Part shown: positions 18,123-52,795 of the stretch, piece by piece
How positions within the stretch are numbered: the first letter of the stretch is position 1
Layout: the number at the start of each line of letters is the position of its first letter
Source of the DNA: an uncultured Lachnospiraceae bacterium
GTDB taxonomy: Bacteria; Bacillota; Clostridia; Lachnospirales; Lachnospiraceae
Length of the DNA stretch: 64,000 nt
Reading direction: 5' to 3'
Assembly (NCBI GenBank): GCA_900318375.1
Contig: ONKG01000006.1
Location: forward strand, 311-64,310
The notes under the pieces: generated by a model
Told to the model about the DNA's origin: nothing
Seen by the model: the letters and a program-made list of their open reading frames with translations, nothing else
Databases searched by the model: none
Translations under genes and position numbers: made by a program

Positions 18123-18352
18123 CTCATGCAGGCATGGCATTTGCGGCCGCTTTCCTCGCTGTTTCTTTTTTGTGATAAAACTTCGTGTGTCTTCGAGCTT
18201 CAGCTCTCTCGACACACTGCATACATTCGCATTCCCGTTCCCTTTTACGCTTTGGCGCATAAAGGGAACTCCATGCTCATGTATGACGCTCGTCAAATGT
18301 CCGCAAATGCTCATGCCCGCATGGCATTTGCGGCCGCTTTCCTCGCTGTTTT
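18123..18352. repeat. About 42-bp direct repeats flanking a roughly 145-bp hairpin-rich segment
   Basis: CTCATGC..GCATGGCATTTGCGGCCGCTTTCCTCGCTGTTT at about 18123-18164 and 18310-18351. Confidence 0.85.
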
Positions 18353-18353
18353 A

Positions 18354-20144
18354 TCACATCCTTGCGGGGGCTGAGAAGCCCAGGACGTTGATGCAGCAGG
18401 AAAGAACGCGTTCTGTCAGGTGCAGAAGCGCGATCCAGGACTCTTTCTGTTCCCGGTCCTCTTCAGTGAGGATCCTGGTGGAATGGTAGAAGGAGTTGAA
18501 ATCGTTGGAAAGCTGGTAAATGTATGCGCAGATTCTGTGGGGAGCACAGTCTGCGAAGGCGCCTTCCATCATGGCATTGAAACCTGCGATATCCATCATG
18601 AGTTTCTTTTCCACGGCGCCGGCAGGCTCGCCTGCTGTGAGCAGAGCGGGATCTTTGGCACCCGGCTCTTCTGCGTAGCGCTGCAGGATGGAGCGCATGC
18701 GGACGATCGTGTACAGGATATAAGGGCCGGTATCTCCTTCGAAGGAGGTAAATTTTTCAATGTCAAAAATATAGTCCTTTGAGGCCTGGTTGGACAGGTC
18801 GCCGTATTTGAGGGCTGCAAGTGCCACCTGGCGGGAAGTCTTTTCGGCTTCGTCGGCAGGGATATCGGGGTTGGTGCTGATCTTGGAGAGCATCTCGGCG
18901 TCGATGTCGGAGATGAGGGTCTCCAGGCGCATGACACCTCCCTCACGGGTCTTGAAGGGCCTGCCGTCCTTGCCGTTCATGGTGCCGAAACCGATGTGGA
19001 TCAGCTCTGTGTCAGGACCGATGAGACCGGCTTTCCGGGCCGCGCGGAAGACCTGCGTGAAGTGCAGTTCCTGGCGCTTGTCGGTAATATAGATGATCTT
19101 ATCAGGATTGTATTTTTCAACACGCTCCTTGATGGTCGCCAGGTCGGTCGTCGTATAGAGAGAGGCGCCGTCGGACTTGAGTACGATGCAGGGAGGGATC
19201 TCCTTGGAGTCGGTCTCTTCCGCGACATCGATGACCAGCGCGCCCTGGCTCTCGTAGGCATAGCCGCCCTTTTTCATATCCTCGACCATGCCGGGGATCA
19301 CGGGGTGTACACTGGCTTCACCGTTCCAGAGGTCAAAGGAGACATCGAGATTTTCATAGTTGCGCTTCATATCGGCGACAGAAACCCCTACGATTTTCTG
19401 CCAGAGGGCGTAGAGACCGCGCTCTCCGTCCTGCAGGCGGCGGGTATTGTCCATTGCCTCTGCATAATAAGCGGGATCCTTTTTGGATTTGGCACTGGCA
19501 AAGGGATAGATCTCTTCAAGCTCAGAAACAGTAAAAGGAGCTTCCCCGGGATAATCGCCTGCATATTCCGGATCAAAATAAGGCAATTCGGGCATTCGCT
19601 TTTTGAGCTCCGTGATCACCAGGCCCATCTGCAGACCCCAGTCGCCCAGGTGGATATCGCCGATGACATCCTCGCCGTGAAAACGGGCGATCCTTTTGAC
19701 TGCCTCGCCGATGACCGCGCTTCTGAGATGTCCCACATGCAGAGGCTTGGCCACATTGGGGCCGCCATAGTCGATGATAATCTTCGAGGCTTTTTCCGGA
19801 AGAGGCATGCCAAGACGGTCATCCCCGCTCATCTGCTGCAGATAGGACTGCAGAAAGCTATCCCTCACATCCAGGTTCAGGAAACCCGGCTTTACAACTT
19901 CAGCCCTGGAGAAGACTGCAGACCCTGTGCCGTCATTTTTTGCGGAAAGTGCCTTTACCACATCATCCGCAATCATGAAGGGAGCTTTGCGGTAGCGCTT
20001 TGCACCTGCCATAGCACCGTTGCACTGATATTCGCAGAGGTCGGGGCGGTTCGATACCGTAACCCTGCCCAATGCACTGTCATATCCCGCCGCCTCAAAG
20101 GCGGATTCCATCTCTTTTGAAATCAGATTCAGAAACTGCTCCAA
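18354..20144 (-). CDS. argS: Arginine--tRNA ligase
   Basis: DYGGPNVAKPLHVGHLRS, HLGDWG, FKTREG, FEGDTGPYILY, C-terminal PARM; TTG start. Confidence 0.96.
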   Translation of the reverse strand: MEQFLNLISKEMESAFEAAGYDSALGRVTVSNRPDLCEYQCNGAMAGAKRYRKAPFMIADDVVKALSAKNDGTGSAVFSRAEVVKPGFLNLDVRDSFLQSYLQQMSGDDRLGMPLPEKASKIIIDYGGPNVAKPLHVGHLRSAVIGEAVKRIARFHGEDVIGDIHLGDWGLQMGLVITELKKRMPELPYFDPEYAGDYPGEAPFTVSELEEIYPFASAKSKKDPAYYAEAMDNTRRLQDGERGLYALWQKIVGVSVADMKRNYENLDVSFDLWNGEASVHPVIPGMVEDMKKGGYAYESQGALVIDVAEETDSKEIPPCIVLKSDGASLYTTTDLATIKERVEKYNPDKIIYITDKRQELHFTQVFRAARKAGLIGPDTELIHIGFGTMNGKDGRPFKTREGGVMRLETLISDIDAEMLSKISTNPDIPADEAEKTSRQVALAALKYGDLSNQASKDYIFDIEKFTSFEGDTGPYILYTIVRMRSILQRYAEEPGAKDPALLTAGEPAGAVEKKLMMDIAGFNAMMEGAFADCAPHRICAYIYQLSNDFNSFYHSTRILTEEDREQKESWIALLHLTERVLSCCINVLGFSAPARM

Positions 20145-29210: not shown

Positions 29211-30668
29211 TTATTCCGCGCCCTCGTGTTTGAGAACGACAGATACCGTCTTGAGAAGAATCTGGAAATCCAGTTCCGGACTCCAGTTCTGTATATATTC
29301 GCGGTCGAGGCGTACGACTTCTTCGAAATCGGTGATCTCGCTGCGGCCGCTGATCTGCCAGAGGCCCGTTATGCCCGGCTTGATACTCATGCGCACGCGA
29401 TGGTGGAGATCATATTTTTCCCACTCGTCCAGAGTCGGGGGACGTGTGCCTACAAGGCTCATCTCACCCTTGAGGACATTCCAGAACTGAGGGAATTCGT
29501 CCAGGGATGTGCGGCGGATGAAATTGCCGATCCCTTTGGGCTTTCCGTTCTTGTCCTTTTTCTCACTGCCGATGATACGGGGATCGTCGTCCATCTTGAA
29601 CATCATGCCGTCCTGGACCTTGTTCTGGGCCATGAGGGCTTTCTTGCGCTCCTCCGCGTCCATGTACATGCTCCGGAACTTATACATTTTGAACTGCTTT
29701 CCGTTCTTGCCGATTCTCTTCTGCGTAAAGAAGATCGGTCCCGGGGATTTGATGTAGATCATCGGAGCGATAAAGATAAAGATGATTCCGGTGAGGATAC
29801 ATCCGACAATACCGCCGGCTATATCCATGCAGCGCTTGAAAGCCAGCTCCCGGATCGATACGATGCGCAGGCTGTTGGTCAGCACCTTGTAGTTGCCGAT
29901 CTTCTCGACTTCCTGTGTCCCCATGCGGCTGTCGTTGAGGGCGGAGATGCAGTAATGCACCGTGATACCCATATTGAGGAGGTTATCCACCATATCCACG
30001 GGATAGGGCAGGTTGTCGGGCTGATACAAAAAGACCTCGTCCACCCAGTGCCGTCCGATATAAAAGAGGATGTTCTCTCCTCTTCCCAGGACCGGAATCC
30101 CGTTCAGATCCTTTTCGTCGGCGGAAGCCTGATCCATCAGGATGATTCCCGAGATGAAATAGTCGTGAAAAGAGTTATCGGAAAGGTTCTGGATCACCTC
30201 GTCCATCAGATGGCTGGAGGTGATCACCATGAGCGATCTCTGTCCCTTTTTGTCCTTGCGGGTACCCAGGACCCTCTTTTTATTTGCCATACGGACAAAG
30301 AAGGAAACAAAGAAAAACATCACTGCGGTCAGACCTGTCAGCAGTCGCGAGATCATGTAGATCTGGTGGACCGAAAACAGATAGACCAGGTTCAGCAGCT
30401 CAACCGTGGCGATATAGCGGAAAGTGCAGACCAGCTCTGTCCATGTACTTCGCCGGAGCACATTTTTGTAACTCTCGGAAAAAAGAACGACGATCAGCTG
30501 GCAGAACAGATAAACGATACCCTGATAGCGGTACAAGACGATTCTGTAGGGATTGGAAATTCCTCGCAGGATGCAGTAGCTCGCCACATAACACAGCTGA
30601 AATACAATCAGATCCAGGACCATGAAATCAAAATGTTTCAGCCATCCTGTTTTTTCTTTTTTATACAT
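29211..30668 (-). CDS. Polyprenyl glycosylphosphotransferase (WcaJ/CpsE-like sugar transferase)
   Basis: KRCMDI, FKMYKFRSM, RRTSLDEFPQFWNVLKGEMSLVGTRP, KPGITGLWQ. Confidence 0.93.
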   Translation of the reverse strand: MYKKEKTGWLKHFDFMVLDLIVFQLCYVASYCILRGISNPYRIVLYRYQGIVYLFCQLIVVLFSESYKNVLRRSTWTELVCTFRYIATVELLNLVYLFSVHQIYMISRLLTGLTAVMFFFVSFFVRMANKKRVLGTRKDKKGQRSLMVITSSHLMDEVIQNLSDNSFHDYFISGIILMDQASADEKDLNGIPVLGRGENILFYIGRHWVDEVFLYQPDNLPYPVDMVDNLLNMGITVHYCISALNDSRMGTQEVEKIGNYKVLTNSLRIVSIRELAFKRCMDIAGGIVGCILTGIIFIFIAPMIYIKSPGPIFFTQKRIGKNGKQFKMYKFRSMYMDAEERKKALMAQNKVQDGMMFKMDDDPRIIGSEKKDKNGKPKGIGNFIRRTSLDEFPQFWNVLKGEMSLVGTRPPTLDEWEKYDLHHRVRMSIKPGITGLWQISGRSEITDFEEVVRLDREYIQNWSPELDFQILLKTVSVVLKHEGAE

Positions 30669-30788: not shown

Positions 30789-32627
30789 TTATTCCACCGT
30801 CACGCTCTTTGCAAGGTTTCTGGGCTTATCGACATCCAGTCCCTTGGCGACACTGATATAGTAGGCCATAAGCTGAAGCGGGATGATCGCCAGACTGTTA
30901 GCAAAGTGAGGATCTGTACGGGGTACATATACGGTGAAATTCGCAGTATCTTCGACACTGTAGTTTCCGTAAGAGGTAAGACCCATGAGGTAAGCGCCGC
31001 GGCTCTTGACTTCGACCATGTTGCTGATGGTCTTCTCGAAGAGATCGGGCTGTGTGAGGGAGCCGACCACGAGGGTTCCGTCCTCGATCAGGCTGATGGT
31101 TCCGTGCTTGAGTTCGCCGGCCGCATAGGCCTCGGAATGTACGTAGCTGATCTCCTTCATCTTCAGACTGCCCTCGAGGCAGATGGCATAGTCTACGCCG
31201 CGGCCGATGAAGAAGACATCGTGGGCATTGGAGAACTTGGATGCAAACCACTGGATCCTCTCCTGTTCCTCCAAAAGACCTTCGATCTGTCTGGGAAGCT
31301 TCTGGATGTCGGCAATGAACTTCTGATACTGGTCCTCGTCGATATTGCCGCGCACTCTTCCGAGCTCAATACCGAGCAGGTAACCTGCCACCAGCTGGGT
31401 GGAATAGGCCTTGGTCGTAGCGACGGCGATCTCGGGTCCTGCCAGGGTATAGAGGACATTATCAGCCTCTCTGGCGATCGAAGAACCGATGACGTTGACG
31501 ATGCCCAGGGTCTTGGCACCCAGTTCCTTGGCTTCGCGCAGGGCGGCCAGGGAGTCCGCTGTCTCGCCGGACTGGCTGATGACGATAACCAGTGTATTAT
31601 CGCTCAGTATCGGCTTTCTATAGCGGAATTCGCTTCCCAGCTCCACGCGGACGGGAATGCGGGTGAGATCCTCGATCACATACTGCAGGGTAATGCCGAC
31701 GTGGTAGGCGCTGCCGCAGGCGACGATATTAATATCGCGGAGATTGCGGATCTCCTCTTCGGTCAGGGAGATTCCCTCCAGGCTGACCTTTCCGTCCTTG
31801 ATGATGGCATTGATGGTATCCTGTACAGCCTTGGGCTGCTCATGGATCTCCTTCATCATGAAGTGCTCGAATCCGCCCTTCTCGGCGGCTTCCGCATCCC
31901 ACTTGATCTCGGTCAGTTCCTTCTGGATCTCTTCCTGGTCCAGATTGTAGAACTTTGCGCATCCCGCGCCGAGTCTGCCAATCTCGTTGTTGCCGATATA
32001 ATAGACATTTCTGGTGTAGCGCAGGATTGCGGGAACATCGGAGGCAATATAGGTCTCGCCTTCCTCGACGCCGATGATCATGGGGCTGTCCTTGCGGGCG
32101 ACAAAGATCTCGTCGGGATACTCTTTGAACATGATGGCCAGAGCGTAGGAGCCGCGGACGCGGACCATGGTGCGCACGATCGCATCAATGGGACCCATGT
32201 TGTATTTTTTCAGATAATAGTCGACCATCTTGATCGCAACTTCGGTATCTGTCTCTGAATGGAAAGAATAACCCTTGCGGACCAGCTTTTCGCGAAGTTC
32301 TTTATAATTGTCAATAATTCCGTTGTGAACACCGATAATGGAACGGTCATCGGTGCAATGCGGGTGCGCATTGTCCTCGGAGGGCTCACCGTGGGTAGCC
32401 CAGCGGGTGTGTCCGATACCGCATGATCCGATCATGGTCTCGCCGTTGTTGGTCTTTTCGGACAAAATCTTCAGACGTCCTTTTGCCTTGACGATCTCGG
32501 GTTCGGCACTGCCGTCCCGGACGGCAAGCCCTGCAGAATCATATCCTCTGTATTCCAGCTTTGAAAGACCGTCCAGAAGGATCGGAGCAGCCTGCTGTTT
32601 TCCAATATATCCGACAATTCCACACAT
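30789..32627 (-). CDS. glmS: Glutamine--fructose-6-phosphate transaminase
   Basis: MCGIVG, LEYRGYDSAG, GHTRWATHG, SQSGETAD, DKPRNLAKSVTVE. Confidence 0.98.
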   Translation of the reverse strand: MCGIVGYIGKQQAAPILLDGLSKLEYRGYDSAGLAVRDGSAEPEIVKAKGRLKILSEKTNNGETMIGSCGIGHTRWATHGEPSEDNAHPHCTDDRSIIGVHNGIIDNYKELREKLVRKGYSFHSETDTEVAIKMVDYYLKKYNMGPIDAIVRTMVRVRGSYALAIMFKEYPDEIFVARKDSPMIIGVEEGETYIASDVPAILRYTRNVYYIGNNEIGRLGAGCAKFYNLDQEEIQKELTEIKWDAEAAEKGGFEHFMMKEIHEQPKAVQDTINAIIKDGKVSLEGISLTEEEIRNLRDINIVACGSAYHVGITLQYVIEDLTRIPVRVELGSEFRYRKPILSDNTLVIVISQSGETADSLAALREAKELGAKTLGIVNVIGSSIAREADNVLYTLAGPEIAVATTKAYSTQLVAGYLLGIELGRVRGNIDEDQYQKFIADIQKLPRQIEGLLEEQERIQWFASKFSNAHDVFFIGRGVDYAICLEGSLKMKEISYVHSEAYAAGELKHGTISLIEDGTLVVGSLTQPDLFEKTISNMVEVKSRGAYLMGLTSYGNYSVEDTANFTVYVPRTDPHFANSLAIIPLQLMAYYISVAKGLDVDKPRNLAKSVTVE

Positions 32628-32681: not shown

Positions 32682-33713
32682 TCAGCTGAAACTGAAAATA
32701 CGCTGGGCAAGAAGGTATAAGGCGACCACAGCCCTGCGGGGAAGATGTCTGTTGACATTCATGGCCCTGCCGAGTATACGCCTGCGCATCTTTTTCCAGA
32801 GCGCTTCATCCCTGTTCCGCAGATATTCCCAGGTCTCATCGCGCAGCTGCAGATGCTCCGGAGCCCCCGAGCGCAGGCACAGCACCGAGGTGACCGTGGT
32901 GATGATCTCCAGGTAGTTGAACATATACTGCCTTAAAGTTTTGCGGTCTCCGATCATCTCCTGACAAGCCGGGTCAGTGAAATGGTCGATCATGATGCGG
33001 TTGACACGGGCCTGCTGGTCCAGTCTCCTGATCATGACGTCCTCGTGGACCGACTGATCCTCACGGCCGATGAAATAGTAATAGAAATTGACATCCAGAT
33101 AGTACATCCGCTCTACGTAGGGCAGCGGATTGAAAACGTAGATGTTATCGACGTAGAAAGTGTGCTCCGGGAGCTTCAGTCCGCTGTCGCGCAGCATCTG
33201 CGTGCGGAAGATCACCGAGTGCATCAGGATGTATTTTCCGACAGGGAAGCGATTTGCCTCGTCCCAGGAAAAAACACGTCCTGCGGGCAGGCAGCGTCTG
33301 TATTCCATGACACTGTGCCGGTTCTGGTCTTCCTTGTTGTAGACGAAATTGCTGATGAGCATATCCAGAGCGGGCTCATCACCGGAAAAACGGCGGAGAA
33401 CATCGAGGATACTCTTGTAGGCGCTGGCGCGCACCTTGTCGTCACTGTCGACGACTTTAAAATACAGGCCCGCCGCGTTTTCAAGTCCTGTATTGACCGC
33501 TCCTCCGTGTCCTTTGTTGGGCTGATGGATTGCCCGGATGATCCCCGGGTGCTCCGCCTCGAGGCGGTCGGCGATCTTCGCAGTCCCGTCACTGGAACCG
33601 TCATCTACGATCAGAATCTCCACTTCCTCTCCTCCGACGAGAAGCGAGCGGATACAGTTCTCCATATATCCTTCGGAATTATAGCAGGGAACGGCAATTG
33701 ATAACAGTTTCAT
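32682..33713 (-). CDS. Glycosyltransferase family 2
   Basis: LSIAVPCYNS, IVDDGSSD, NKGHGGAVN, VVDSDD; start moved to ATG 33713 after GGAGG. Confidence 0.92.
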   Translation of the reverse strand: MKLLSIAVPCYNSEGYMENCIRSLLVGGEEVEILIVDDGSSDGTAKIADRLEAEHPGIIRAIHQPNKGHGGAVNTGLENAAGLYFKVVDSDDKVRASAYKSILDVLRRFSGDEPALDMLISNFVYNKEDQNRHSVMEYRRCLPAGRVFSWDEANRFPVGKYILMHSVIFRTQMLRDSGLKLPEHTFYVDNIYVFNPLPYVERMYYLDVNFYYYFIGREDQSVHEDVMIRRLDQQARVNRIMIDHFTDPACQEMIGDRKTLRQYMFNYLEIITTVTSVLCLRSGAPEHLQLRDETWEYLRNRDEALWKKMRRRILGRAMNVNRHLPRRAVVALYLLAQRIFSFS

Positions 33714-33899
33714 TATATAAGTAAGCCTCCTGTGTAAGGCAGTGGGCTGCTGTACTGACCCGCCGGAAACATGAGGGGGTATGCGCAGTGACAGCAATGT
33801 TGTTTACTGAACTCTGTGATGTTTTACCTGAACACAGATAGAATATTTTACCACAAAACAATCGTCTTGTACCATATTCAGAAAAATTTCATACACAAT

Positions 33900-34091
33900 C
33901 GCAAAACGGAAAGCATGCCGGCAGTTGAAACCGCAAAGCAGAAAGCAGACCGGCAGCAGAAAGCGCAAAGCGAAAAGCAGGCCGGCAGCAGAAACCGCAA
34001 AGCGGAAAAGCAGGCCGGCAGCAGAAACCGCAAAGCGGAAAGCAGGCCGGCAGCAGAAACCGCAGAACAGAAAGCAGGTCGGTAACCGCAG
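33900..34091. repeat. Tandem repeat, about 32-bp unit x5-6
   Basis: CGCAAAGCGGAAAGCAGGCCGGCAGCAGAAAC with small variations; no spacers. Confidence 0.9.
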
Positions 34092-34101
34092 ATCATATCT
34101 C

Positions 34102-35166
34102 TCAAACCGGAAAAAACGAAGAATAGGCGCTGGGCAGGGCATATTTTTCCTGCAGGTCGCGGATCGGCGCTGTAAAGCATCTCCCGCGGGGGGCATCAGC
34201 CCCGGAAAAACTGCCAATCCTGATCTCATAGCCGTGCATATGCCACTCTTTGTGGGTGAAAATATGCCTTGCATGGGGGAGAGAGCGGATGTGAAGCGGA
34301 TCACAGCCGTACTCCCTGGCCTTTCGGACAGCTTCTTCCTCACTGAGCCACCCGCTCTCATTTGGAAACTCGTACAGGCCTGCCAGAAGGCCTCTGTCAG
34401 GCCGTCTGCGCAGCAGGATCCTGTCGTCATCGCGGATGACGAGAATTGTGCGCTTTTCGATCCCGCGCGCCTTTTTTGCCGGCATGACAGGCAGCTGCGC
34501 CGCCCTGTCCACGGCTGCGGCGCGGCAGTACTGACGCAGGGGGCATTCCCCGCAGGCAGGGGCACCGCCGGGTGTGCAGATCCCCGCCCCCAGGTCCATC
34601 AGTGCCTGGTTGAAATCGCCCGCAGAGTCCGCGGGCATCTGCTCCAGAAAAAAGGCTCCCGCCGCTGCAGCGGCAGCAGGTGTCCTGATCTCCTCCGCAT
34701 AGAGGGTGAGTCTTGCGAACACCCGCAGCAGGTTCCCGTCAATGGCAGGGATCCTCTCCCCGAAGGCGATCGAGGCAATCGCCGCGGCGGTATAGGGCCC
34801 GATGCCGGGAAGTTTTTTCAGCTCTTTTGCGCTTTTGGGCATTTCCCCTTTATATTCATTCACAAGAATACGGGCAGCCTTCTGCAGGTTTCTCGCCCTG
34901 CTGTAATAGCCAAGTCCCTCCCACAGCTTCAGGCAGGTGTCTTCATCCGCCTCTGCCAGGGCGCAAAGATCCGGGAACCGCTCCAGGAAACGGGCATAAT
35001 ATCCCTTTACTGCTTCGACACGGGTCTGCTGCAGCATGATCTCGGAGATCCAGACATGGTAAGCGGAAGGATCGTCCCGCCAGGGCAGGCTGCGGCGGTT
35101 CTCCCTGTACCATGCAAGGAGCGGTCCGCTGATCCCCGGAAGGCTGTTTTTTTCTTTTATCTCCAC
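34102..35166 (-). CDS. mutY: A/G-specific adenine glycosylase
   Basis: LPWR, WISEIMLQQT, WEGLGYYSRARNL, LPGIGPYTA, C-x6-C-x2-C-x5-C Fe-S motif. Confidence 0.95.
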   Translation of the reverse strand: MEIKEKNSLPGISGPLLAWYRENRRSLPWRDDPSAYHVWISEIMLQQTRVEAVKGYYARFLERFPDLCALAEADEDTCLKLWEGLGYYSRARNLQKAARILVNEYKGEMPKSAKELKKLPGIGPYTAAAIASIAFGERIPAIDGNLLRVFARLTLYAEEIRTPAAAAAAGAFFLEQMPADSAGDFNQALMDLGAGICTPGGAPACGECPLRQYCRAAAVDRAAQLPVMPAKKARGIEKRTILVIRDDDRILLRRRPDRGLLAGLYEFPNESGWLSEEEAVRKAREYGCDPLHIRSLPHARHIFTHKEWHMHGYEIRIGSFSGADAPRGRCFTAPIRDLQEKYALPSAYSSFFPV

Positions 35167-35341: not shown

Positions 35342-36688
35342 TCAGACCAGGTGGCCCTTGTCTTTGATGACATCGATGACAGAATCCACGAGTTTCTCGC
35401 AGGTATCATCGGAGCCTGCCTCGACCATGACGCGGATGACGGGCTCGGTACCGCTCTCGCGGACCAGGATGCGTCCATCGTCTCCGAGATCCTCGGCAAC
35501 TTTCTGAACCTGTGCCTGGACATCGGGATCATTCTGTGCGTCGGGTTTGGACTTGACGCGGACATTCTTGAGCACCTGGGGATAGAATACGACAGGTGCC
35601 GCAAGCTCACTCAGGGGTTTGTCCTTGGCCAGCATGACTTCCATCATCTTGAGGGAGGTCAGAATGCCGTCGCCGGTGGTTGCGTACTTGGTGAAAATGA
35701 TATGGCCGCTCTGCTCGCCGCCGATGCGGTGGCCGTTCTGAACCATATTTTCATAGACATATTTGTCACCGACTTTGGTCTTCTCATAGTCGATCCCGAC
35801 CTTGTCAAGTGCCTTGTAGAGTCCGAAATTGCTCATGACGGTGGTCACGACAGTATTGTTGATCAGTTTGTCGCGCTCCTTCATGTACAGGCCGTAGATA
35901 TAGAGGATGTGGTCGCCGGTGACGACGTTGCCCTTTTCGTCTACGCAGAGGCAGCGGTCAGCGTCTCCGTCGTAGGCAAAGCCGACATCGAGGCCGTTGT
36001 CCACAACAAACTTCTGCAGATGTTCGATATGGGTGCTGCCGCAGTCCGTGTTGATATTGTAGCCGTCAGGCTCCGCGTTCATCACATAGGTCTTGGCGCC
36101 GAGAGCATCGAAAACGCCCTTTGCGATCGACCAGGCAGCGCCGTTGGCGACGTCCAGTCCCACACGCTTGTTCTTGAAGCTGAACTTGGACATGGAGATG
36201 AGATATCCGATGTAGCGGTTGCGGCCGGCGACATAGTCGACGGTGCGGCCGATATCGTGACCGCTGGCGACAGGAATCTCGATCTTGCCGTCGATATAAT
36301 CCTCGACCTGGAGGATGGTCTCCTCATCCATCTTCTCGCCATTGGTGTTGAGAAGCTTGATCCCGTTGTCGTAGTAGGGATTGTGGGAGGCGGAAATCAT
36401 GATTCCGCAGTCAAAATCATCGACACGGGTAATATAGGCGACGGAAGGAGTTGTCGTCACGTGCATGATGTAGGCATCAGCACCGGAAGCCATCAGGCCG
36501 GTGCAGAGCGCATACTCAAACATGTAGCTGCTGCGCCTGGTGTCCTTGCCGATGACGACCTTTGCCTTCTTGCCGACACGAGCTCCGTAATACCAGCCCA
36601 GAAAACGGCCGATCTGAATCGCGTGCTCAAATGTAAGTACTTTATTGGCTTCGCCGCGGAAGCCGTCTGTTCCGAAATATTTGCCCAT
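35342..36688 (-). CDS. glmM: Phosphoglucosamine mutase
   Basis: YFGTDGFRG, ISASHNP, DGDADR, GGEQSGH, RESGTEPVIRVMVE. Confidence 0.96.
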   Translation of the reverse strand: MGKYFGTDGFRGEANKVLTFEHAIQIGRFLGWYYGARVGKKAKVVIGKDTRRSSYMFEYALCTGLMASGADAYIMHVTTTPSVAYITRVDDFDCGIMISASHNPYYDNGIKLLNTNGEKMDEETILQVEDYIDGKIEIPVASGHDIGRTVDYVAGRNRYIGYLISMSKFSFKNKRVGLDVANGAAWSIAKGVFDALGAKTYVMNAEPDGYNINTDCGSTHIEHLQKFVVDNGLDVGFAYDGDADRCLCVDEKGNVVTGDHILYIYGLYMKERDKLINNTVVTTVMSNFGLYKALDKVGIDYEKTKVGDKYVYENMVQNGHRIGGEQSGHIIFTKYATTGDGILTSLKMMEVMLAKDKPLSELAAPVVFYPQVLKNVRVKSKPDAQNDPDVQAQVQKVAEDLGDDGRILVRESGTEPVIRVMVEAGSDDTCEKLVDSVIDVIKDKGHLV

Positions 36689-36728
36689 TTATACCTCCTG
36701 ACAATACGTAAACACGCATAGTCGCGGA

Positions 36729-37517
36729 TTACAGCCTCTGGCTCTTCTCGATATCCAGGAAATACTTGTAGGTGTCGACCTTCAGCTCGCCGCAGGCAGG
36801 CTCGTCGCAGGCGATGATCGCGTTTTTGTGCATCTGCAGAGCGCTGCAGGTGACCTTCGCGCTGACGGGTCCCTCAACAGTTGCAGCCAGAGCTGCAGCC
36901 TTGTTGTGGCCGTTGATGACAAGCAGGACTTCCTTTGCATCCGTGACAGTCTCGACGCCGACAGACAGAGCCTTCTCGGGAGTCTTGTCCACATCGTTGT
37001 CAAAGAAACGGGAATTGACAATGCGGGTATCTGTTGTCAGAACGCGGACGCCGGTCCTGGATGTCAGAGAAGTATAAGGCTCATTGAAGGCGATGTGGCC
37101 GTCCTGGCCGATGCCGCCCAGGAAGAGGTCGATGCCGCCGATGGCTGCGATCTTTGCCTCATACTGCGCGCACTCTTCTTCGGGATCTTCGCACATGCCG
37201 TTGAGGATGTTGACGTTCTCGGCGGGGATATCGACATGATCGAACAGATAGTAGTGCATGAAATACCAGTAGCTCTGATCGTGTTCGCGGGGCAGTCCCA
37301 GATACTCATCCATGTTGAAGGTCACGACGTTCTTGAAAGAAAGCTCGCCGGCTTTGTACATTTTAACAAGCTCATTATAAACACCGATGGGAGAAGATCC
37401 GGTTGCAAGACCGAGTACGAAAGGCCTTTCCTCCTTATGGGCTTTGATCTTGGATGCGATATACTCCGCTGCCCATTTACTCATCTTATCATAATTTTCC
37501 TGGATTACGACTCTCAT
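36729..37517 (-). CDS. nagB: Glucosamine-6-phosphate deaminase
   Basis: FVLGLATGSSP, TFNMDEY, GIGQDGHIAFNEP, SALQMH; catalytic residues look intact. Confidence 0.95.
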   Translation of the reverse strand: MRVVIQENYDKMSKWAAEYIASKIKAHKEERPFVLGLATGSSPIGVYNELVKMYKAGELSFKNVVTFNMDEYLGLPREHDQSYWYFMHYYLFDHVDIPAENVNILNGMCEDPEEECAQYEAKIAAIGGIDLFLGGIGQDGHIAFNEPYTSLTSRTGVRVLTTDTRIVNSRFFDNDVDKTPEKALSVGVETVTDAKEVLLVINGHNKAAALAATVEGPVSAKVTCSALQMHKNAIIACDEPACGELKVDTYKYFLDIEKSQRL

Positions 37518-37567
37518 GTTAATCTCCTTTTATTGTCTTCATAAATAATTCTGAATTGTCTGTATCT

Positions 37568-37712
37568 TCAGTGTGTCGGGAGAGGTTTTGTTACAGTTTT
37601 GATTCTGCTTTTTGTCCTCTCTCTGACGGCCCGCACTACAGCCGTGGCAGCATCCGCCGAATCTTTCGATCACTGCCAGACCTCGTCAGCCTGTCAAGGC
37701 CCTGGCGCTAAA
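37568..37712 (-). ncRNA. glmS ribozyme (GlcN6P-activated self-cleaving riboswitch)
   Basis: Minus strand: UAGCGCCAG-GGCC-uugaca-GGCU-GACGAGG-ucuGGCAG-UGAUCGAAAGAUUCGGCGGAUG-CUGCC-ACGGC...GCCGU...GAGAGG-ACAAAA...ACAAAA-CCUCUC. Contains the conserved AGCGCC, GACGAGG, AUCGA and UCGGCGGAUG core plus P3/P4. Predicted cleavage between 37709 (A-1) and 37708 (G+1). Confidence 0.92.
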
Positions 37713-37859
37713 AACTCCCTGTTTCCTCCTCCCGGAAGGGAATCTTTTTACTGAGCTGAATAACGTTATAATCGACATTTTATGCCCTTATTTCGTTATA
37801 TTCCACCTGATCATCCAGATGTACAGCTTATTAAATATATAGCAGTATCCTGAGATTTG

Positions 37860-38885
37860 TCAAGAACAGAGCCGGATGATGGTCATCTCGACCGCCAGTC
37901 CCGCATCCATCAGACCGCTCTTGTAGTCCTGGTCCGCCTGCAGACACAGCTGCAGGGAGCGGGTCAGGCGGCGGCCGTCGAGATTCCTGGCGATCGGCAG
38001 ATAATTCTTTTTGACGATCCAGGGGGAGAGACCGACACTCTTTGCGATCTCCGCTTCGGATTCTCTTGCCTCCTGGAGTTCCTTTACCTGCACCAGCCGG
38101 GAGAACTCCCTCTGCAAAAGGGTCAGGATGACCTGGGAAGGGGTCCGCAGACTGATCAGCTCCATATAGATTGCCAGTGCCTTGTCCTTCTGCCGGCGGG
38201 ACACCGCGCCGATCATCTCAAAGATACGGTCCTTGAGCCGGGGACTGCAGACAGCCTCGATGTCCGCGGCCGTCACGCTCTCCCTTCCCATACAGTAGGC
38301 GATGAGTTTCTCGGACTCGCTGACGATGTTCATCATGTCCTCACCCACTGTCTCCAGAAAGCGGTTCAGTGTCGGTCCGTCGATCATAAGGCCGGCTTTT
38401 TTGAACAGGCCCCCTGTCCATCGGCCCAGCATCTGGGGGGAAAGATCCTCGCAATTGAGCACAAAGCCGTTCTTCTGGATCGCCTTATAGAGCTTTTTCC
38501 GCTTGTCCGGACTCTCCTCCACAAATACCAGCGAAGCCGATTCCGGAATATCCGGAATAAAGGCCGCAAGCGCATCGGATTCCACACTTGCCTTCTTGGA
38601 AAAAAAGACAGAGTTCTCGAGCAGGATCACACGTCTGTCCGCGAAAAAGGGAAGAGTCTGGGCTTCGTCGATGACCTCTCTTGCCGTTACATCCATACCC
38701 GAATAGACAGAGACATTCATCTCATCCCCGTCTCCCAGAAGGGCTGCGCGCAGACGGTCACGATTCTGTATGCGCAGGTAGGCCTGCTCTCCGCACAGCA
38801 GATAGACCCTGTGGAAAACACCTTCCTTCAGTTCTTTATTGAACAGACTCTGCTGCTGAGCAAAATCATCCTTCTTTGCCGCCAT
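37860..38885 (-). CDS. holA: DNA polymerase III subunit delta
   Basis: VYLLCGEQAYL, AQTLPFFADRRVI, DKRKKLYK, ESEKLIAY, DQDYKSG. Confidence 0.92.
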   Translation of the reverse strand: MAAKKDDFAQQQSLFNKELKEGVFHRVYLLCGEQAYLRIQNRDRLRAALLGDGDEMNVSVYSGMDVTAREVIDEAQTLPFFADRRVILLENSVFFSKKASVESDALAAFIPDIPESASLVFVEESPDKRKKLYKAIQKNGFVLNCEDLSPQMLGRWTGGLFKKAGLMIDGPTLNRFLETVGEDMMNIVSESEKLIAYCMGRESVTAADIEAVCSPRLKDRIFEMIGAVSRRQKDKALAIYMELISLRTPSQVILTLLQREFSRLVQVKELQEARESEAEIAKSVGLSPWIVKKNYLPIARNLDGRRLTRSLQLCLQADQDYKSGLMDAGLAVEMTIIRLCS

Positions 38886-52724: not shown

Positions 52725-52795
52725 GCAGGTGTAGTTCATCGGTAGAATACCAGCTTCCCAAGCTGGGGAGACGGGTTCGATTCCCGCCACCTGCT
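52725..52795 (+). tRNA. tRNA-Gly (anticodon CCC), CCA not encoded
   Basis: Acceptor GCAGGTG/CACCTGC plus U discriminator; anticodon arm CCAGC-TTCCCAA-GCTGG; T loop GGTTCGATTCC. Confidence 0.93.

Follow-up and report, generated by a model that had tools for sequence, protein, structure and literature searches.

A structural subfamily of the glmS ribozyme has been redeployed onto an amino-sugar operon centred on nagB, an arrangement that is real, widespread and apparently unpublished. It is described here from a window of 64,000 nucleotides (64 kb, the whole stretch analysed) of contig ONKG01000006.1, from an uncultured Lachnospiraceae bacterium (assembly GCA_900318375.1; genome G000, 82% complete). 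According to source labels, the lineage belongs among the Lachnospiraceae-like Clostridia of the ruminant gut. The reading preferred here, with a probability of about 0.6, is that the ribozyme acts as the OFF switch of an anabolic operon whose NagB would aminate fructose 6-phosphate (Fru6P) with ammonium to produce glucosamine 6-phosphate (GlcN6P) beside a retained GlmS. The anatomy of the operon is solid, and the anabolic role of NagB appears likely from comparisons of genes and genomes.

The genes concerned all lie on the minus strand, in the order ribozyme, nagB, glmM, mutY, GT2 (a family 2 glycosyltransferase gene) and glmS:

37569..37720, minus strand: glmS ribozyme (RF00234), 62.5 bits against a gathering score of 37, model positions 1-167, with predicted cleavage at 37709/37708 (A/G)
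36729..37517, minus strand: nagB of the long (E. coli-like) type, 262 aa; TIGR00502, 367 bits against a cut-off of 236.9; allosteric Arg158 replaced by Gly, catalytic residues retained
35342..36688, minus strand: glmM, phosphoglucosamine mutase, 448 aa; TIGR01455 above its curated cut-off
34102..35166, minus strand: mutY, a context gene outside the module, above its curated cut-off
32682..33713, minus strand: GT2 glycosyltransferase, a context gene; matches to glycosyltransferase families below cut-off
30789..32627, minus strand: glmS, 612 aa, without a ribozyme of its own; TIGR01135 above its curated cut-off

The initial annotation, made from the letters alone, had placed a full-length glmS ribozyme in front of nagB-glmM and proposed the Rfam covariance model as a check. 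The match runs over the full model, from 37720 to 37569, and is followed by spacers of 51 nt (ribozyme/nagB) and 40 nt (nagB/glmM). It had also described glmS as lying about 5 kb away, behind 54 nt of spacer and free of any ribozyme, and this too is borne out: the start of the intact glmS is 4.9 kb downstream, the GT2/glmS spacer is 54 nt long, and the copy at nagB is the only RF00234 match found in the 82% complete genome. On its 3' side, glmS adjoins a gene for an exopolysaccharide (EPS) polyprenyl glycosylphosphotransferase (29211-30668, minus strand), which occupies the same place in close relatives; the GT2-glmS unit may perhaps be devoted to polysaccharide synthesis.

Three further features bear on the limits of the transcription unit:

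37834..37863, minus strand: sigma70-type promoter candidate TTGACA-18-TATATT, 11/12 consensus (a consensus match only), overlapping the holA stop codon
35271..35306, minus strand: strong hairpin after glmM (-35.7 kcal/mol over 60 nt) with a weak U tract, where the ribozyme-led transcript probably ends
33845..33853, minus strand: extended -10 TGGTAAAAT, likely promoter of a separate GT2-glmS unit, kept in 12/13 syntenic genomes

Hexamers and spacing of the TTGACA-18-TATATT type are also the top-scoring ones upstream of the loci L012, L025 and L097. Nine of 10 syntenic genomes have a comparable hairpin in the 110 nt after glmM. The extended -10 at 33853-33845, in which the initial annotation had seen a separate promoter for GT2, has a TGnTA(A/C/T)AAT counterpart in the same 12 genomes at a variable distance from the start codon; the thirteenth has Ns there. 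A single transcript reaching glmS is unlikely because of the strong hairpin after glmM and the conserved promoter before GT2. RNA contigs agree with this. Two studies provide three rumen RNA runs whose contigs, matching at 97% or more, reach from 35246 to the 37636-37749 bin and join the ribozyme to nagB, without cover at 37750-38091 or below 35242; a DNA-like run of unrecorded library type extends on both sides. They hint, weakly, at a ribozyme-nagB-glmM unit. Contig depth was greater on nagB-glmM than on holA, mutY or GT2-glmS but was set aside as support because such depth cannot rank genes.

The ribozyme of the window keeps the core of its class. AGCGCC is found in 66/66 distinct subfamily copies (partly by selection), GACGAGG in 65/66 and UCGGCGG in 66/66, and all three are present in the window copy, the roles of individual bases in the cleavage-site and core motifs being those generally assigned to them. 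In canonical copies, a GNRA tetraloop on P4.1 docks on a long P1. The window ribozyme does not have this accessory feature; P1 is short throughout the subfamily and the tetraloop is replaced, while a conserved hairpin named P0 stands in front of the cleavage site:

37593..37608, minus strand: variant P4.1 hairpin with an 8-nt AAUCAAAA loop replacing the GNRA tetraloop, the subfamily signature
37710..37747, minus strand: conserved 5' hairpin P0, ending immediately 5' of the cleavage-site A and bearing GGAGG (37729-37725) in its apical part; identified by covariation and by the GGAGG count

Of 71 copies, 63 have the exact 8-nt L4.1 loop and 5 a near-exact one; the other 3, which are canonical, lack it. 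Rfam scores range from about 40 to 75 bits in the subfamily, against mostly 75-120 for canonical copies, but the stems covary and persist across families. A short P1, an L4.1 other than GNRA and a covarying 5' hairpin that contains GGAGG define these ribozymes as a structural subfamily. A class-wide control sets it apart from canonical copies. The ribozyme was found in 54 of 150 genomes; copies were taken from 50 of the 53 genomes other than that of the window, and of the 45 located by pattern, 44 lead glmS and none (0/45) has the loop signature. Conversely, a scan of 401 genomes of the class for the signature gave 10 matches, 6 of them apparently due to chance and 4 real ribozymes including that of the window; the other three lead nagB or a GlmU-C-like acetyltransferase gene (AcT), one of their cores being missed by the pattern. 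No match to the signature was found in viral contigs.

GGAGG is present in 58 of the 66 distinct leaders, against 14% in shuffled ones; it starts at -19 to -22 in 44 of them and is mostly unpaired in predicted folds. At the P0 pair of position -4, C-G is found in 29 leaders and U-A in 26, and 59/64 are paired whereas the shuffle maximum is 51, in a count that was anchored on the 5' A-run without using pairing and is uncorrected for kinship. The case for P0 rests on this covariation count, since the hairpin z-score is weak alone (median -1.3). Only 1 of the 45 canonical leaders has GGAGG at the subfamily position, although many have Shine-Dalgarno (SD)-like runs elsewhere. In the 50 nt upstream of the canonical glmS ribozymes of L250, L251, L254, L267, L272, L289 and L293, many Clostridia leaders show strong SD-like runs before the cleavage site, a few being followed by tiny start-stop frames (by eye); such runs are possibly a general 5' stabiliser. 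Inspection by eye of the subfamily leaders revealed no conserved leader peptide or start codon after GGAGG. A CsrA-type ANGGA site was ruled out, the A being conserved in only 27/66. According to PMC5737220, downstream mRNA is stabilised in B. subtilis when a ribosome sits on an SD-like sequence, with or without a start codon. By analogy, P0/GGAGG could be an SD-like 5' stabiliser of the STAB-SD kind, where 30S binding keeps RNase J out, and its loss by cleavage would deepen an OFF switch.

The survey of the 86 genomes of the genus shows that the arrangement recurs. Rfam detected the ribozyme in 29/86 genomes and a pattern search added G082. The first gene after these 30 ribozymes is nagB in 17 cases, glmM in 10, AcT in 2 and glmS in 1 (G075, where a subfamily ribozyme stands directly before glmS); nagB is found inside 29 of the 30 ribozyme-led operons. 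Besides ribozyme-nagB-glmM, as in the window, the architectures include ribozyme-glmM-nagB-glmS (9 genomes), ribozyme-nagB-AcT-glmM and ribozyme-AcT-glmM-nagB. In G013, G026 and G079, holA-(mutY)-GT2-glmS is kept and the ribozyme module is located elsewhere; module and glmS therefore move independently. The nagB-glmS spacers of L032, L034, L041, L043, L044, L045 and L049 contain GC-rich hairpins that immediately precede the ribosome-binding site of glmS and leave no space for a promoter; these could attenuate glmS or protect it from 5'-to-3' decay.

Two types of NagB occur in the genus, never together above cut-off. The long type is found in 31 genomes, 29 of which have the ribozyme, and the short type often adjoins nagA. 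A NagB match is absent from 22/86 genomes, while nagA is matched in 84/86, including about 20 genomes that have nagA without any NagB match. A NagE-type phosphotransferase system (PTS) was above cut-off in 3/86 genomes, all with the short NagB. As regards the genome of the window, the initial annotation had seen no nagA or N-acetylglucosamine transporter in the window; nagA does exist as a stand-alone gene on another contig (C87), and neither a NagE-type PTS nor GH20 was found in this 82% complete genome.

Outside the genus, at least 589 GTDB loci have this NagB; the 80 best, 77-98% identical, were used, and 69 were left once 11 genus duplicates had been dropped. They come from records of Lachnospiraceae, Oscillospiraceae, Erysipelotrichaceae and Anaerolineaceae. 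The ribozyme was found in 39 of the 69 (40 with L166), glmM in 44, AcT in 37 and glmS in 7, and nagA beside the long NagB in none (0/69). Eight loci consist of ribozyme-nagB alone and in 15 nagB has none of the module genes. GlmR, the product of yvcK, is reported to be a uridyltransferase (PMC10128056); yvcK/GlmR lies directly 3' of nagB in L112, L163 and L166, followed in two of them by AcT-glmM, which is possibly a complete operon from Fru6P to UDP-N-acetylglucosamine without glmS or glmU. The Chloroflexota (Anaerolineaceae) loci L115 and L116 have a glmM-nagB of the same clade, nested among Clostridia sequences, in which the ribozyme was not detected. In the NagB tree (a quick method, with many open nodes), the genus is interleaved with other families and with this Chloroflexota pair, which hints at horizontal spread; a protein homolog search returned further members of the same clade only.

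Whole genomes were searched for 50 of the 80 outside records, picked for a glmS-free locus. The ribozyme is present in 37 of them, at the nagB locus in 36 and at glmS in G156, whose nagB is ribozyme-free. G137 has a second ribozyme copy (C125:22427-22592). A scan of metagenome contigs for the ribozyme signature, which avoids seeding by nagB, gave 80 of at least 120 loci with flanks, 76 of them distinct. The first gene, identified in 65, is nagB in 42, AcT in 16, glmM in 4 and glmS in 3, so that nagB, AcT or glmM comes first in 62/65 and the identified first genes always belong to the GlcN6P pathway; among the other 11, 6 are cut short and 5 lack the ribozyme core. A one-off insertion, envisaged in the initial annotation, is thus contradicted by the genus, outside-genome and ribozyme-seeded surveys alike, which all show recurrence.

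The best solved-structure matches of this NagB are 7lqm and 1cd5 (E. coli-type). The catalytic residues D72, D141, H143 and E148 are retained in 93/93 distinct NagB sequences. The residues of the N-acetylglucosamine 6-phosphate (GlcNAc6P) allosteric site (Y121, D141, E148, S151, R158, K160 and Y254) and their roles are those listed in a passage of PMC4281351. R158G, K160R and S151T are found in 93/93 sequences and the salt-bridge residue K250 is D or G, while Y121 and Y254 are mostly retained. Among five genomes checked for the rest of the pathway, none (0/5) has a bifunctional GlmU and all five have a UAP-like protein, an RNase J (split over two contigs in one case) and a PF00208 (glutamate-dehydrogenase-family) protein. 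G000 carries an AcT homologue, 54% identical, on contig C122; the activity of AcT is suggested by partial GlmU-C profile matches that lie below cut-off. No SIS-type NagB-II was found besides GlmS itself.

In the mechanism that these features suggest, GlcN6P would trigger cleavage at 37709/37708, and cleavage would strip the P0/GGAGG leader and expose the mRNA to RNase J. NagB would work near equilibrium and be drawn towards amination by GlmM, a stand-alone AcT and a uridylyltransferase of the UAP/NagU type (sometimes YvcK). Glutamine would be spared when ammonium is ample, with GlmS as a back-up. An OFF switch is taken as the default for two reasons: RNase J is present, and in G075 and 3 metagenome loci the first gene after a subfamily ribozyme is glmS itself, for which repression alone is sensible. 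Subfamily ribozymes also stand at the head of glmM-nagB-glmS in 9 genus genomes. NagB is treated like GlmS because nagB is the most constant target, sometimes the sole one, in anabolic company, and because a catabolic enzyme repressed by GlcN6P would be anti-homeostatic. The biosynthetic NagB put forward in the initial annotation is partly supported: the comparative context (the company of glmM, AcT and sometimes yvcK or glmS, never of nagA) is favourable, whereas the retention of glmS and the fact that the long NagB is usually the only one are not.

Several points weigh against an anabolic NagB. Deamination is the direction favoured by the equilibrium: with a Keq of 0.22 M, and with Fru6P at 1-2.5 mM and ammonium at 5-20 mM, as generally given for the rumen, equilibrium GlcN6P would, on a rough estimate, be only about 0.02-0.2 mM, a marginal position thermodynamically. 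With little ammonium, derepression would turn NagB into a drain on the product of GlmS, and it is odd that glmM should be repressed by its own substrate. The NagB of Akkermansia, with a Km for ammonium of 41 mM, does not replace GlmS, as stated in a passage of PMC5902328. The altered allosteric site is not diagnostic of an anabolic enzyme, because the catabolic enzymes of Akkermansia and Bacillus lack allostery too. Furthermore, glmS is matched in 29 of the 31 long-NagB genomes of the genus and in 44 of the 50 outside genomes. The long NagB is also the sole NagB above cut-off in 47 of these 50 and in every long-type genus genome; it may therefore catabolise as well, being the only NagB there while nagA occurs in 84/86. 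A second, catabolic NagB that would divide the labour was dropped as support, being found in only 3/50 outside genomes, with second copies that are not beside nagA.

The loss of glmS is no better guide. The gene is missing from 2 of the 31 long-NagB genomes versus 10 of the 55 others. In L241 (G024:C34:9000-13500) and L052 (G083:C22), GT2 and the EPS sugar transferase are found with a clean deletion of glmS between them; the gene has been relocated in G083 and was not found in G024, which is 97% complete. The loss in G024 was rejected as proof of an anabolic NagB because G083 has the same local deletion with a relocated glmS and because glmS is missing in 10/55 others. These ten genomes, which lack both glmS and the long NagB (G062, G028, G067, G074, G078, G001, G087, G089, G090 and G007; five are at least 92% complete), are possibly amino-sugar auxotrophs or assembly gaps.

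The retention of glmS and the favoured deamination also feed the best of the rival explanations, in which NagB serves ordinary or bidirectional salvage without net anabolic role. The ribozyme, inherited from an ancestral operon that held glmS, would still repress, and nagB, glmM and AcT would be co-regulated passengers that tune the GlcN6P pool. The ribozyme-glmM-nagB-glmS operons of nine genus genomes speak for this view, as do a long NagB that is mostly unaccompanied by any other NagB and a near-universal nagA. However, nagA does not imply catabolism, because about 20 genus genomes have it without a NagB match. Moreover, the ribozyme stands at the nagB locus and not at glmS in 36/37 ribozyme-bearing outside genomes (picked for their glmS-free locus), nagB is its constant partner across many gene orders and sometimes its sole one, and a nagB expressed most when GlcN6P is low would drain the pool. 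This explanation is considered unlikely.

An opposite sign of regulation is less probable again. Cleavage would here remove an inhibitory P0/GGAGG leader, and GlcN6P would induce its own consumers (NagB for disposal; GlmM, AcT and YvcK for wall synthesis). Every common gene of the module, in its usual direction, does consume GlcN6P or products of it, and induction by the substrate would be homeostatic. The subfamily also has a conserved 5' element that is new, and a terminator-like hairpin stands between nagB and the following glmS in 7/9 spacers (by eye). Yet where the subfamily directly leads glmS (G075 and the 3 metagenome loci), induction would be a positive feedback. Only 12 nt separate nagB from glmS in G023, RNase J is present, and the operon has no uptake or nagA genes. 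To our knowledge, no ON-type glmS ribozyme has been described. Finally, that the ribozyme is a relic or senses another ligand, with nagB outside GlcN6P control, is very improbable: the lower Rfam scores, the altered GNRA/P1 contact and a change of ATCGAA to GTCGAA in 7/66 subfamily copies speak for it, but the cleavage-site hexamer and GACGAGG are kept as stated above, covarying stems are retained across families and the downstream genes always belong to the GlcN6P pathway.

The OFF switch on an anabolic operon can be extended into a bolder and more doubtful proposal, held only tentatively. The module would have spread horizontally in rumen Clostridia and some unrelated rumen bacteria, the ribozyme subfamily being redeployed from glmS to NagB. 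NagB would be the main source of GlcN6P, bringing ammonium directly into wall sugar without glutamine or ATP; GlmS would be dispensable (possibly so in G024), and P0/GGAGG would bind ribosomes and stabilise the mRNA until the ribozyme removes it.

The ribozyme resembles the canonical one from the 5' untranslated region of B. subtilis glmS by its full model match, its cleavage-site and core motifs, its 5' untranslated position and the RNase J of its genome. It differs in leading nagB, AcT or glmM and in its short P1, 8-nt L4.1 and extra 5' hairpin with a GGAGG at a fixed position. All but two of 463 ribozymes are reportedly located in glmS mRNAs, according to the abstract of McCown 2011. RegPrecise lists 44 sites, all with glmS as their only regulated gene (PMC3766115). 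Full-text literature searches returned no report of a glmS ribozyme leading nagB, although the supplements of McCown 2011 may name non-glmS exceptions.

An anabolic member of the NagB family has been proposed in Giardia lamblia and Entamoeba, where GlcN6P would be made from Fru6P and ammonia, the enzyme of Giardia not being activated by GlcNAc6P (PMC4281351, in the passage concerned). These organisms lack a GlcN6P synthase, whereas the present case is bacterial, usually with glmS (intact in the window), under ribozyme control and with a direction deduced from context. Mammalian GNPDA is described as reversible in a passage of PMC10138107. The hexameric, allosteric and catabolic NagB of E. coli (nagE-nagBACD) shares structure matches and catalytic residues with the NagB described here, but the latter has R158G/K160R/S151T, no nagA neighbours and a position behind a GlcN6P ribozyme instead of induction together with nagA. 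In E. coli, overexpression of nagB suppresses a glmS mutant (a statement in PMC11822699, citing Vogler 1989). A bacterial NagB can thus supply GlcN6P in vivo, although this is a laboratory state and not a natural conserved operon. The absence of bifunctional GlmU, the UAP-like proteins and the GlmU-C-like AcT recall the split GlmU pathways, which combine a stand-alone acetyltransferase with NagU/UAP or GlmR/YvcK, as outlined in part of a preprint (bioRxiv 10.64898/2026.06.23.733835); the same part of that text mentions neither NagB nor the ribozyme.

As the glmS ribozyme has been described as the regulator of one gene, a large natural clade that controls other genes widens the class, and its extra conserved RNA structure provides new natural variants for study. 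If NagB is indeed anabolic, the operon would give bacteria a natural way into peptidoglycan precursors that does not depend on glutamine, and rumen ammonium would be assimilated by a route so far overlooked; metabolic models and annotations with a catabolic NagB would need correction for such taxa. The long-standing question of a physiologically biosynthetic bacterial NagB becomes directly testable.

Other features of the window lie outside the operon. A 32-nt GC-rich unit is repeated in 5.7 tandem copies at 33900-34082, between mutY and the GT2 promoter. Elsewhere, a Clostridiales-1 RNA (RF01699, 88.5 bits) is found at 18175-18354 on the minus strand and a tRNA at 52725-52795 on the plus strand.

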